The translations under genes and the position numbers were made by a program. Below, one piece after another: positions 8,450-18,848 of a stretch of 64,000 nucleotides of DNA (positions are counted from its first letter, which is position 1; each line of letters begins with the position of its first letter). The stretch lies in NCBI GenBank assembly GCA_019058275.1, contig JAHLVW010000094.1, positions 91,070 to 155,069 of the forward strand, read 5' to 3'. A model generated the notes under the pieces. That model did not search any database, had not been told where the DNA came from, and saw only the letters and a list, made by a program, of their open reading frames with translations. The DNA comes from Candidatus Heimdallarchaeota archaeon. Its GTDB lineage: Archaea; Asgardarchaeota; Heimdallarchaeia; JABLTI01.

Positions 8450-9477
8450 CTATGTTCCGAGCCTTCTTTTCATCGAACTGGTAGCATTCTTCAAGTCAGC
8501 ATTGCTCATGAGAGGGAATTGATGCTTCTCAGCATCTTTGGTACATTCAAGATTTCTCTTTTTTGTTACCGATTCTGAGATTTCCTTTAAGATTATTCTG
8601 TCATTCACAATTTTTAATGTTCCCATATAATACTCATTTATTGCTAAGTTCACCATTATTAATAAATGGGTTCTTAATGAAGTTTTTTTATAACTCATTG
8701 CTTCTACTATGCGAGTTAACTTGTTGGAATGATATATAAAGTTATACAATTTGTAAGCGGAATCACTTCTTTTTTCAATTTCTTGTGCTAACTCTTGGAA
8801 ATCTATTTCCCCATTGATTATGTCATATCTTGATTTGGTCTGCAAAACTTTTTTCCTTGTAATGTAAGATGCAATGGAATCATAACGTTTGATCAATCTG
8901 ATTAGTTGATTATCATTCAAATTGTTTCCGTGGTGGTTTAGACAAGCTTCTCGAACCTCTTCATCAAGTATCGTAACTTGTTTATAGATTTTACTTGGAT
9001 GTTTCTCAGTATGAACAAAGTCATGAAGCATAAGAGCAATCAGTAAACGCTGTAAAGATCTTGGATAATTAACTCCTAATCCTTTTCGAATCCTGAGTTT
9101 CCTTCTACGAGAAATTACCTTCTTTTTGTATGCTTCAACTTTGTAATTTAACCATTTCACTTTTCCAAATCCTTGATTTCTCTTGCTTCCTAAGTTATCG
9201 AATGCCAGTATTCGTTCTATTTTTTCTTTACCCCTCTTTTCGTTATGATCAACACAAGTTACTTTGACAAATCCGCGAAAAGCTTTCAAAACAATTGGCG
9301 CCTTTCGTTCTCCCCTTACTAGTTTTCCAACATAACTCCTGCGAGGTTTTTTCTTTGTTGCAAATCCCCTACTATCTTAAACCAACACCCATGTTTCTTA
9401 AAAAATGGAGAAGAAGATACAAGAGGAGTAAGTAGTTTCCCTTCCAAAGCGAAGAGTTTCTTTTCTTGTGTTACCAT
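8450..9477 (-). CDS. Cas5-like RAMP fused to Cas10-type permuted HD nuclease (~342 aa; -1 frameshift, probably at the G4 run 9366-9369)
   Basis: ATG at 9477 overlaps the upstream stop and gives RAMP beta1 ALEGKLLTPL; one added G joins it to ORF 8450-9289 with G-loop LGSKRNQGFGKV, then LHD, NHH, YDSIAS and C-terminal SLRTHL. Confidence 0.8.
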
Positions 9478-10229
9478 GCTTCCTCCATTTGCTTCCAGAG
9501 GTTTCGTTCTTTTTCCTCCTCGATTATTTTACCATTTTTTCCAATTGTTCTTGTCCGAAAAACTTCTTGGAGAACAATCTCCAGTAATTCAATTTTACCT
9601 GAGCCATTGTTTACACTTCCTCCGAGTCCAAGTTCAGGCATGAATAGTATCGCTTTGAGAAGAAATCCTAGTTCTTCTTGTTTTAGTTCCTCGTTGAAAT
9701 CTATTATGAATGTGAATTCTCCAGAGAAATATCGTTCCCCGAAATCTTGCATTGCTTGTTTTAAACCATGTGTTAAACTATTTCTTGTTTCAGTTGCTAT
9801 GTGCACTTTTTGTGCATCCCCATTCTCCCCTTTTGAATATGTTGAAACAATAACTACTGGTTCGAATTTTACTCGAGAAAATCTTTTTATTGACCCCATA
9901 ATACTATGCCAAATACATTCACTTTCAGGGAAACACGCACCATTTGGATGGAATCCTTCTGGGAGTAGTTTTTCCCCACTTTGTGTTTCTGTTTTATCTG
10001 AAGAGTGACAGATCTCTACTCCTTGTTGTTTTGCTATTGCCATCATGGAGTGATTAAGTAATCCTCTTATCCCTTTCACTAAGTATCTTTTCCCATCGTT
10101 TCCATTTTCTCCATTTGTTCCTAGGAGTAGTAAGTTGTTTACTTTTCCTCCGGAAAACGCTCCATTTCCTGTCTTAGTAATGGGTGTTCTTACTCTTACT
10201 TTTATTCGCTTAAATTTTCTCGAAACCAT
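9471..10229 (-). CDS. Cas7-group RAMP (Csm3-like)
   Basis: VRVRTPI beta1, GIRGLL helix motif, Cys/His cluster ending IMGS, C-terminal G-rich loop GLGGSVNNGSGKI. Confidence 0.82.
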   Translation of the reverse strand: MVSRKFKRIKVRVRTPITKTGNGAFSGGKVNNLLLLGTNGENGNDGKRYLVKGIRGLLNHSMMAIAKQQGVEICHSSDKTETQSGEKLLPEGFHPNGACFPESECIWHSIMGSIKRFSRVKFEPVVIVSTYSKGENGDAQKVHIATETRNSLTHGLKQAMQDFGERYFSGEFTFIIDFNEELKQEELGFLLKAILFMPELGLGGSVNNGSGKIELLEIVLQEVFRTRTIGKNGKIIEEEKERNLWKQMEEAW

Positions 10230-10262
10230 GTTTTTTCACCTTTTCTCTTAAATTCATTTTTC

Positions 10263-10342
10263 AAGATATGTTCATCGTGCATATCTTTAGTATATACTTT
10301 GTATATGGCAAACATTATTTATAAATATTCCTACCATATACA
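10263..10342. promoter_or_regulatory. Divergent promoter with operator-like inverted repeats
   Basis: AAGATATG/CATATCTT (10263-10287), palindrome AGTATATACT (10289-10298), TGTATATGG/CCATATACA (10300-10342) bracketing TATA-like TTTATAAATA. Confidence 0.6.
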
Positions 10343-10358
10343 TGTGGAGACAATTATT

Positions 10359-17392: not shown

Positions 17393-17394
17393 AG

Positions 17395-18090
17395 GTGATG
17401 AAAGTGTCAATGAAAAAGAAAGTGAATCTCCAGAATAATCCAACAATAGCTCTAAATGGAGCTATAGCTACTATATTAACAGATAATGACTTTCGGATTC
17501 GAAAGAAGAAGAATAGGAAGCTATACAGATTAACAATAAAAGAAATCGTAGCTAAAGGATACATCCGGACACATGCGTTTGCTACTAATTGGCTAATGGG
17601 ACTGTTTGAGTATGGTGAAATAACATCCCTTACTTTTCATGAGATAATGGAAAAATTACCTTGGTCATGGGATAAAACAAGGGAGTATTTTGATTCATTG
17701 GAAGAAATTGGCATTGTTCAGTTTTCAAGAGATTCGTTTGGTAGGAAAATTTGCATTCTTACTATTGACAAGGAGATTAGATCAAAACAAGTTGAAAACT
17801 TGGTTAACTTGTATAAAAAAAATGAAACTCACTCACGAGTAACTTTTTCTGAAGCACGAAAGGAATACCTGAAATATTATGAAAAATTGAATGAGTGGTA
17901 CTGTAAAAACGCAAATGTGGGAAAAATGTCATCGAAGGTTACACAAACAATTAGTAACAAAGTTGACAAATTCATCTTCGATGTAACCAACATTATTAGT
18001 AAAGCTAGGGAAAAAGAGCTTAGAATTAATCTCTTGAAGTTTTTGAAGAGAAATCCTTTGTTGATACATTCATTAAAGAGGAATGGTTAG
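17395..18090 (+). CDS. Basic protein with central wHTH
   Basis: LTFHEIMEKLPWSWDKTREYFDSLEEIGIVQF. Confidence 0.65.
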   Translation: MMKVSMKKKVNLQNNPTIALNGAIATILTDNDFRIRKKKNRKLYRLTIKEIVAKGYIRTHAFATNWLMGLFEYGEITSLTFHEIMEKLPWSWDKTREYFDSLEEIGIVQFSRDSFGRKICILTIDKEIRSKQVENLVNLYKKNETHSRVTFSEARKEYLKYYEKLNEWYCKNANVGKMSSKVTQTISNKVDKFIFDVTNIISKAREKELRINLLKFLKRNPLLIHSLKRNG

Positions 18091-18092
18091 AT

Positions 18093-18848
18093 TTGGTAGT
18101 AATGGAATATGAATTAAATCTTAGTACGACTGAGTTTCTATATTTCCTGGATTGTCCACAGAAATTTAGACTTTACCGTATTCTCAATCCCTTACCATAC
18201 AAGTCAAATTTCATGAATAGCAGTAGATCAGTAATTTCTTACAAAATGAGGGGATATAAGAGCAAAAAGGATAAGGGAATCAAATATCATCATTTCTTTG
18301 AGACTTTTCATAAGAAATATTCAAGGATTATTACTAATACAACACCCCCAGAAGAAATACAAGAGGATAATGTGAAACTACTTTATTGGGTCATTCAACA
18401 AGAAAAATACTATGAAAAAAAAGAGGACTATTACTGGTATCCATTTGAAAGAGAAGTTCGGCTAATGACGGAAAAACAAAGAGGAAAAATAGATTGTATT
18501 GAACTTTGTGAAGACAAAAATGGCTTACGAGTAATCGATTACAAATCAACTCCTGAACTTAATGATCATCTTACATTGCTGTTCTATGCAAGTTTGCTGA
18601 ATGATTATCGCTTGGAGAATACAGATGAAGGGAAATTTGATTGTGAAGTGTTAGAGGTTGGTTGTTACTATTATGAAATGGGTGTAAAGAAAATCTATAA
18701 TTTAACAGAAGTAGACAGATTAGCATTTGAAAGGATTCTTAAGAATACGCAAGAAAAAATATCGAATAATGAATTCTTCTTGAACAAAAGCTCATGTTGG
18801 AATTGTAACGTTAAGACAATCTGCAAGATTGAAATAGGGAGAAATTAA
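18093..18848 (+). CDS. Cas4-like PD-(D/E)XK nuclease with 4-Cys Fe-S motif
   Basis: N-terminal DCPQKF, GIKYH, E-GKID-IDYKS catalytic motifs, C-terminal CWNCNVKTIC. Confidence 0.85.
   Translation: MVVMEYELNLSTTEFLYFLDCPQKFRLYRILNPLPYKSNFMNSSRSVISYKMRGYKSKKDKGIKYHHFFETFHKKYSRIITNTTPPEEIQEDNVKLLYWVIQQEKYYEKKEDYYWYPFEREVRLMTEKQRGKIDCIELCEDKNGLRVIDYKSTPELNDHLTLLFYASLLNDYRLENTDEGKFDCEVLEVGCYYYEMGVKKIYNLTEVDRLAFERILKNTQEKISNNEFFLNKSSCWNCNVKTICKIEIGRN

Follow-up and report, generated by a model that had tools for sequence, protein, structure and literature searches.

An array-less, probable ARAMP cassette with a diverged Cas1 in a Heimdall-group archaeal genome

Known relatives and the identity of the cassette

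Many Asgard archaea carry CRISPR derivatives that are distant relatives of the haloarchaeal HRAMP; these have been named ARAMP, and most of them come with a distinct Cas1 (PMC8730458). Both HRAMP and ARAMP lack an array, are type III-derived, and are associated with HNH and PD-(D/E)xK nucleases (PMC12669027). ARAMP and its Cas1 (aCas1) were described by Makarova et al. in 2020, as summarized in these two reviews, and Asgard transposons that combine aCas1 with TnpB have been published as groups Cas1H-Asgard-1/2 (Altae-Tran et al. 2023, PMC10691335). Here, we analyze a 64-kb stretch (G000:C89:91070-155069, hereafter the window) of a 4.1-Mb, 118-contig metagenome-assembled genome (MAG), assigned to the Heimdall group by the named sources of its homologues, in which positions ~8403-18872 hold a cassette of ~10.5 kb. 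We conclude, with moderate confidence, that this cassette is one copy of an Asgard-specific, array-less ARAMP with an aCas1 module, and that it works, or worked, as an RNA-guided accessory element.

From left to right, the cassette consists of a structured tail, a gene that joins a Cas5-like RAMP to a Cas10-type HD domain (RAMP-HD), and a Cas7-like gene, all on the minus strand, followed on the plus strand by AbrB and LAGLIDADG-HTH genes, a 2.4-kb insert, and a tight operon of wHTH, aCas1, protein X, and Cas4-like genes (Table 1). The assignment to ARAMP is based on a RAMP family match, a RAMP plus Cas10-type HD fold, a Cas1/casposase fold, matches to PD-(D/E)xK and Cas4 families, and the matching description in the reviews. 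As far as those summaries go, ARAMP are Asgard-only and array-less, with extremely diverged Cas7/Cas5 proteins of type III flavor, a distinct Cas1, and PD-(D/E)xK-type nucleases. The window locus likewise has a RAMP pair, no array, a linked aCas1 and nucleases, and a mostly Asgard range.

An earlier reading of the window, made from its letters without database searches (the original prediction), had placed Cas7-like, RAMP-HD, Cas1-like, and Cas4-like genes here, and our family and structure searches recovered all four where it had put them. It was also right that these are diverged Cas1/4/5/7 derivatives without an array. The architecture itself is not new, being of the ARAMP and aCas1 kind described in 2020. 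This kind is already catalogued. What appears to be new here is a clean presence/absence block, a multi-copy grouping around a hub gene, the exchange of the effector for TnpB, a structured tail, and decay at the level of strains.

No CRISPR array was detected anywhere in the 64-kb window, nor were cas2, cas6, or cas10, and family searches of the cassette open reading frames (ORFs) found no Cas10, Csf1, or Cas14 signature gene. Those cassette searches likewise yielded no Cas11 or large subunit, and the Csm1 model had no match in the whole genome. The lack of an array, cas2, cas6, and a Palm-type large subunit in the window had been predicted, and array and family searches agree. Genome-wide, canonical cas1, cas2, and cas6 are confined to contigs other than that of the window.

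Several other described systems resemble the cassette in part. Type IV (above all IV-C, whose large subunit carries an HD), type VII, and HRAMP share with it a Cas7 plus Cas5 core without a Cas10 cyclase, and a Cas10-type HD. However, the cassette has no array, Cas6, large subunit, DinG, or Cas14, and its HD is fused directly to a small Cas5-like RAMP. Casposons are similar in their Cas1-fold candidate integrase, for which casposase 6opm is the top structural match, and in presence/absence between relatives, whereas the cassette lacks terminal inverted repeats and a target-site duplication, no family-B or other DNA polymerase match was found in any of its ORFs, and its Cas1 has extra wHTH and Zn modules. 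The aCas1-TnpB transposons are built on the same aCas1/LAGLIDADG-type backbone (the C16 locus described below is such a locus) and also have an end nuclease gene followed by a conserved non-coding region. The window differs from them in its two-gene, class-1-type RAMP/HD effector and its AbrB, and no flanking repeats were found. Finally, OMEGA systems (TnpB/IscB) are alike in working only, with a structured element over the nuclease 3' end that stops abruptly at the boundary and can persist alone, but their proteins are unrelated, and no guide segment was found in the putative RNA of the cassette.

The effector pair, its structured tail, and the aCas1 module

The two effector genes overlap by 7 nt, the end of the Cas7-like gene lying over the start of RAMP-HD. 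Besides the matches in Table 1, the Cas7-like protein has further weak PADLOC matches to Cmr1 and Csm4, and its family comprises just 45 representative clusters among 1.84 billion proteins. RAMP-HD contains the HD motif LHDFVH. In an AlphaFold2 (AF2) model of an intact paralog (predicted local distance difference test [pLDDT] 81), residues 14-130 are predicted to fold like the RAMP subunits Csm4, I-A and IV Cas5-type, and Csm3 (Z 5.5-6.8, Foldseek probability 0.9-1.0); within this range of Z, the domain matches both Cas5-type chains (9g9a_G, 9crp_G) and Cas7-type chains (Csm3). Residues 148-342 of the model resemble the HD domain of Csm1/Cas10 (6ifk_A, Z 8.0; 6mua_A, Z 7.2), and the final 43 residues are unstructured. 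The RAMP-HD family profile had no match among PDB sequences. Homologues of RAMP-HD are annotated as "hypothetical" and have no Pfam domain. Where a source is named, it is mostly a Heimdall, Borr, or other Asgard MAG; a small number, which may be mis-binned, are labelled Bathyarchaeia or Zixibacteria.

The aCas1 fold was predicted from a family model built on a 25-sequence alignment of 660-680-aa proteins (pLDDT 83). Foldseek returned casposase 6opm as the top match (1.1e-7), followed by ~45 Cas1 chains, and matches to the two-domain body, among them 6opm, 4n06, and 8d3p, extend over ~380-400 aligned columns. In sequence, the relationship to Cas1 is faint: profile comparison with the genome's own Cas1 is weak (hhalign E 0.0027, probability 11%), the window copy was absent from a PF01867 search of the genome at E<=0.01, the C-terminal piece has a PADLOC Cas1 match (1.4e-4) and no other Cas1 sequence match, and the family profile matched PDB sequences only at its N-terminal wHTH. 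The weak hhalign alignment pairs the EGG, H, D, and E of aCas1 with Cas1 catalytic residues, and E420, H503, D513, and E516 are invariant or nearly so among the 25 family members. Thus, the RAMP and Cas1 folds proposed for the key proteins in the original prediction were found when intact homologues and family models were searched. Homologues of aCas1, too, are "hypothetical" proteins with no Pfam domain and mostly from named Heimdall/Asgard MAGs. The cassette provides no Cas2 partner for aCas1; in the genome search, Cas2 was located only on contigs C26 and C76.

Of the other proteins in this module, the Cas4-like nuclease scores 0.0016 against TIGR00372 (18 bits vs. a cut-off of 65), has a four-Cys pattern (one N-terminal Cys plus a C-terminal C-x2-C-x5-C), and shows no similarity in pairwise comparison with the I-B Cas4 of the genome. 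Protein X, labelled HTH in the original prediction, had no match above noise in Pfam, PHROGs, or other family searches. The non-coding leader of the operon has a sharp 5' conservation edge at the box AATGTACAAGAGGGG, then a palindrome whose arms co-vary across genomes, three ~22-nt direct repeats, a TATA-like box, and a ribosome-binding site. This leader may be an operator array or an RNA.

At the other end of the cassette, the tail of the RAMP-HD gene may be an RNA partner of the effector, laid out like the omega RNA of TnpB. RAMP-HD paralogs share only ~50% protein identity; despite this, nucleotide conservation is strong over the final ~150 nt of the gene and the ~50 nt that follow. The protein model is disordered in this part. 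In order, the tail contains a GATGC/GCATC hairpin, a nested stem, a stop-spanning box CATAGGCAGGGAAAA, a variable-stem hairpin, and the ribosome-binding site and start of the downstream gene. In the window, it ends directly before the ribosome site and start codon of Snf7. In alignments of 18-28 copies, pairing holds in 96% of the cells at the proposed pairs, with double changes in 8 cells; 0 of 500 shuffles reached this, and in slid controls ~40% of cells pair. The variable-stem hairpin has a different stem in each copy and was seen in 14-15 of 18 (11 with p<=0.05 vs. shuffles); it is degenerate in the window copy. In about half of the copies, the ORF stops earlier or is in another frame, with the tail nucleotides retained, and nhmmer located 7 tail copies in the genome, 2 of which are solo, without the gene.

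Rfam had no match in the window. At five paralog loci, its single match was an intron-containing transfer RNA (tRNA) adjoining the C11 copy, where the tail of the effector pair abuts the 5' end of this 134-nt, probably intron-containing tRNA gene (L014:11337-11470). ARAGORN missed it and reported no tRNA adjoining any copy.

A presence/absence block on a backbone shared with TnpB

The cassette is a discrete unit between genes conserved within the genus, namely Snf7, ORF18905, and a HerA-like ATPase, of which the last two were present in 10 of 10 same-genus genomes searched. Four of these relatives (G002, G003, G005, G007) are empty, with a gap of ~90-120 nt between Snf7 and ORF18905, while G001, G004, L033, and L024 have the cassette at the same site as the window. 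G006 has a remnant before Snf7, namely ~300 nt of the HD gene 3' end, tail included. Homology to the empty sites ends at 8384 and restarts at 18872-18889, and we placed the left junction by eye at ~8402-8406. Among 38 public loci that encode a RAMP-HD relative, the same gene order (Cas4-like < X < aCas1 < wHTH < LAGLIDADG < AbrB | Cas7-like > RAMP-HD) recurs in L017, L019, L021, and L024, so that the co-occurrence of the two modules is seen in at least four other Heimdall MAG loci. Judged from these comparisons, the block is mobile or exchangeable in an evolutionary sense. A discrete indel unit with empty sites in congeners fits the mobile-element alternative of the original prediction, but its footprint is not casposon-like.

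Paralogs within the genome connect the cassette to other elements. By tblastn and ORF clustering, we counted at least seven Cas7-like/RAMP-HD pairs (window, C88, C82, C86, C25, C11, C105) and at least seven aCas1 genes. The LAGLIDADG-HTH gene, of which the genome has 22 copies, is the hub gene of the cassette family. Its neighbors come in a few module types: beside every copy is a "left" partner, divergent from it, and often there is also a co-directional "right" partner. On the left are AbrB, Cas7-like, and RAMP-HD (4 loci), a 498-aa TnpB (OrfB_IS605, TNB, HTH_OrfB; 4 loci), an 800-aa TnpB-glycosylase fusion (6 loci), or a NERD-domain protein (4 loci). On the right are the wHTH-aCas1-X-Cas4-like operon, a distant aCas1 with another small gene, or a 1367-aa protein with DEAD/MZB helicase and phosphoesterase. 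The 800-aa fusion consists of a TnpB core (OrfB_IS605 + TNB) and an OGG_N/HhH-GPD DNA glycosylase, as in L064 (G000:C88:38322-40724) and five paralogs.

The C16 locus has the order TnpB | LAGLIDADG > wHTH > aCas1 > X > Cas4-like and shares with the window 74% nucleotide identity in LAGLIDADG and 84% in the aCas1 module. In it, TnpB fills the slot of AbrB-Cas7-RAMP-HD. The presence of TnpB beside this paralogous backbone indicates that one backbone carries either TnpB or the RAMP effector. TnpB paralogs also have an omega-RNA-like conserved structured tail at the equivalent place.

We propose that, rather than a fixed immune locus, the cassette is an accessory element that moves or is exchanged horizontally, or did so in the past. 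Its DNA-joining enzyme would be aCas1, acting with the Cas4-like nuclease, and the LAGLIDADG-HTH, AbrB, and wHTH proteins would contribute to site choice or regulation. Cas7-like subunits and RAMP-HD would assemble on an RNA, for which the conserved tail from the HD gene 3' end is the best candidate. The resulting RNA-guided HD nuclease would act as TnpB with its omega RNA does on the sister backbone, and cutting of its target would favor keeping or spreading the element, or excluding competitors. The more specific idea that Cas7-like/RAMP-HD with its tail is a class-1-type RNA-guided nuclease, interchangeable with TnpB plus omega RNA on an aCas1/LAGLIDADG mobile backbone, is one we put forward tentatively and regard as rather doubtful. 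If it is true, a multi-subunit CRISPR-type effector would serve as a transposon homing or retention nuclease without a CRISPR array, and OMEGA-style elements and class 1 effectors would be naturally linked.

Since 2020, ARAMP have been CRISPR relatives of enigmatic RNA, target, and role. The locus leaves their naming unchanged and offers concrete handles: a 10.5-kb unit with empty sites in sister species, co-occurring strains with a natural knock-out and with intact alleles, a candidate RNA partner in a constant position, and an in-genome comparison of TnpB and RAMP on the same Cas1 backbone. The idea of an RNA-guided nuclease that serves a Cas1-based element is testable, and it bears on the joining of Cas1, class 1 effectors, and transposon guide RNAs. 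Should the idea fail, the locus would remain a well-documented example of the known ARAMP kind.

The same nuclease-rich gene content could also belong to a non-programmable defense or abortive-infection island, in which the RAMPs would be a scaffold or sensor for the HD nuclease with no specific guide RNA, LAGLIDADG, Cas4-like, and aCas1 would be further nucleases of a defense hotspot, and presence/absence would reflect ordinary island turnover. The many nuclease domains fit this, as do the polymorphism and fast decay, which resemble those of costly defense genes, and the 2020 authors, insofar as the reviews report their view, expect a mechanism distinct from CRISPR. However, an island of this sort accounts poorly for tail nucleotides that are conserved irrespective of reading frame, for the retention of solo tails, and for the RNA-guided nuclease TnpB in the equivalent position. 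We consider it unlikely.

Several observations weigh against an RNA-guided mobile element. Terminal inverted or direct repeats and a target-site duplication were not found at the cassette ends, where, as at the ends of the C16 paralog, searches gave chance-level matches only, and no conserved sequence was found after the Cas4-like gene. In addition, ~90 nt of the empty-site spacer have no counterpart in the occupied allele. Together, these make the footprint unlike that of casposon-type Cas1 integration. The polarity may run either way, and the empty sites could also be deletions. Linkage between effector and aCas1 is loose, in that three of the four LAGLIDADG-linked effector pairs in the genome are without aCas1 and, with the queries used, the Borrarchaeum loci were many bare effector pairs, all without aCas1. 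Covariation in the tail is modest, since its sequence is so conserved, and the tail could be explained otherwise, as a DNA site, a protein motif, or a leader for the host gene that follows.

A further point against our proposal is that the genome has a type I-B system with Cas6 and arrays in trans, which the original prediction had named as grounds for refutation should they explain the effector. A complete type I-B locus on C26 (L016:7497-16956) has the order cas6b-cas8b-cas7b-cas5b-cas3-cas4-cas1-cas2, and its array is cut off by the end of the contig. Of the three arrays, those on C26 and C68 match, and the one on C4 has a second repeat type; the repeats have ATTGAAAT at their end, a typical 8-nt handle. 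A supply of CRISPR RNAs (crRNAs) in trans is thus possible, and the cassette might be a chromosomal defense module that borrows crRNAs made by the type I-B Cas6, an extra array-less interference module like some type III and IV systems, with aCas1 and Cas4-like in spacer uptake or as unrelated neighbors. The type III-like RAMP folds would suit such a role as well. Yet a borrower would not be expected to come as at least seven effector pairs per genome with conserved 3' tails of their own, the family has a backbone in common with TnpB elements, and no Cas10, Cas11, or large subunit was found. The reviews also regard ARAMP as probably not CRISPR-like in working. Borrowed guides therefore seem improbable to us, and we retain the accessory element with its own RNA as the preferred reading.

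Decay of the window copy and accompanying features

To follow the state of the cassette in different strains, we compared alleles from independent Logan assemblies of related samples (X1, X3, X4, X5). X1 repeats the window sequence, and the breaks described here are thus not an assembler artefact. RAMP-HD has a 1-nt deficit at 9360, where X3, X4, and X5 carry an extra T and encode RAMP-HD as a single 342-aa ORF. The wHTH gene is split by a TAA at 15052-15054; it is one ORF in paralogs C16 and C29, and an A for T at 15052 in X3, X4, and X5 gives a 251-aa ORF. In aCas1, two surplus nt lie in a C-run at 16863-4. X5 is without the 2 nt at 16863 and has a 663-aa aCas1 ORF, while X3 and X4 keep the frameshift of the window. 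A family-invariant Asp (D513, in the H..D..E motif) is Asn in the window copy and Ala in X5.

According to the original prediction, two genes were hidden by single-base frameshifts. This is accurate for RAMP-HD, whereas the break in the Cas1-like gene is a 2-nt surplus. Nor are the genes merely hidden: with the stop in wHTH as a third lesion and intact sister alleles, the copy is degenerating. Intact single frames in sister strains and paralogs show that this is ordinary strain-level pseudogenization and not recoding. Programmed frameshifting was rejected on account of those plain single frames. The C16 paralog has lesions of its own, aCas1 with TGG>TAG and the Cas4-like gene with a frameshift; for its aCas1, a recoded stop was rejected as well, TGG>TAG occurring in that one paralog only. 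Phase-like variation at short runs is possible, and we infer that the window copy is losing function in the strain assembled. Separately, X3-X5 carry an in-frame 9-nt insertion (GCTTCCAAA, plus strand) at 9477, in the overlap of the Cas7-like stop and the RAMP-HD start.

Given three disabling lesions and the Asp to Asn change, the window copy might be an inert relic, retained for no other reason than that its tail has come to serve as the upstream region of Snf7 (ESCRT-III). The tail abuts the Snf7 start, and the tail-bearing remnant in G006, all that this genome retains, lies in the same place. Against this, RAMP-HD and wHTH are unbroken in X3-X5, as is the aCas1 frame in X5, and in the window itself nothing interrupts the Cas7-like, LAGLIDADG, X, and Cas4-like ORFs. 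We judge a relic to be very unlikely; as it concerns the state of this copy and not the mechanism of the family, it would be compatible with the accessory-element reading.

Table 1. Features of the cassette and its flanks, in window positions
Feature	Position	Strand	Size	Evidence and remarks
Snf7 (ESCRT-III)	7722-8384			Host flank, not cassette
Structured tail	8386-8581	-		Nucleotide-conserved and folded; last ~45 codons of RAMP-HD plus ~50 nt past stop
RAMP-HD (Cas5-like RAMP + Cas10-type HD)	8450-9477	-	342 aa when intact	Split in two frames here
Cas7-like RAMP protein	9471-10229	-	252 aa	Intact; Pfam RAMPs E 1.8e-7; PADLOC Csm3 2e-4
AbrB/MazE-type small DNA-binding protein	10299-10523	+		Pfam MazE_antitoxin 1.8e-6; divergent from Cas7-like
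LAGLIDADG-HTH	10614-12188	+	524 aa	Pfam LAGLIDADG_3 1.9e-8; weak HTH matches
Lineage-specific insert	12040-14395	+	2.36 kb	27% GC; four orphan ORFs
Insert ORFs	12377-12676, 12713-13138, 13154-13567, 13564-14232	+		
Non-coding leader of aCas1 operon	14396-14646	+		Conserved; alignment of 7 loci from at least 4 genomes, blastn
wHTH-like "HTHx"	14647-15402	+	251 aa when whole	Weak HTH_5 match; split by TAA here
aCas1	15399-17392	+	663 aa when intact	Two frames here; N-terminal wHTH, Cys-rich Zn module, predicted Cas1 fold
Protein X	17395-18090	+	231 aa	Between aCas1 and Cas4-like; conserved in paralogs and MAG loci L021, L024, L025
Cas4-like PD-(D/E)xK nuclease	18093-18848	+		Pfam PDDEXK_1 1e-13; PADLOC Cas4 5.9e-5
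Right junction	18849-18889			Homology to empty-site genomes resumes at 18872-18889, before ORF18905 stop
ORF18905	within 18905-22703		326 aa	Host flank, no family assigned
HerA/DUF87-type ATPase	20016-22703		895 aa	Host flank

The central genes had been taken for cargo. This does not apply to AbrB and LAGLIDADG-HTH, which are the most constant part of the cassette family; the position of the AbrB gene is unchanged in paralogs and other MAGs. LAGLIDADG-HTH had no match among PDB sequences. Only the insert at 12040-14395 is cargo-like: it is missing from paralogs C16 and C29, where homology skips from 12040 to 14396, the gap at its position varies in size among other MAGs, and its four ORFs have no Pfam or PHROG match and no paralog in the genome. 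A read joint at 12037-14396 in run X1 was considered as an excision product and rejected; it has only 29 nt on one side and is best explained by a C16-type paralog. In the right flank, ORF18905 had no PHROG or Pfam match.

Elsewhere in the genome, on C82, another Cas7-like/RAMP-HD pair has a perfect repeat-spacer-repeat unit ~290 nt upstream of it (L011:1497-1590). This unit has a 29-nt repeat (CTGTATTTTTCACTTATATAGCTGCTTAC), found nowhere else in the genome, and a 36-nt spacer. Within the window, four tandem, diverged repeats of ~1 kb (61-86% identity) occupy 39200-42700, and two paralogous stretches with ~4.1-kb spacing occupy 48600-53700. Both look like tandem gene families unrelated to the cassette.

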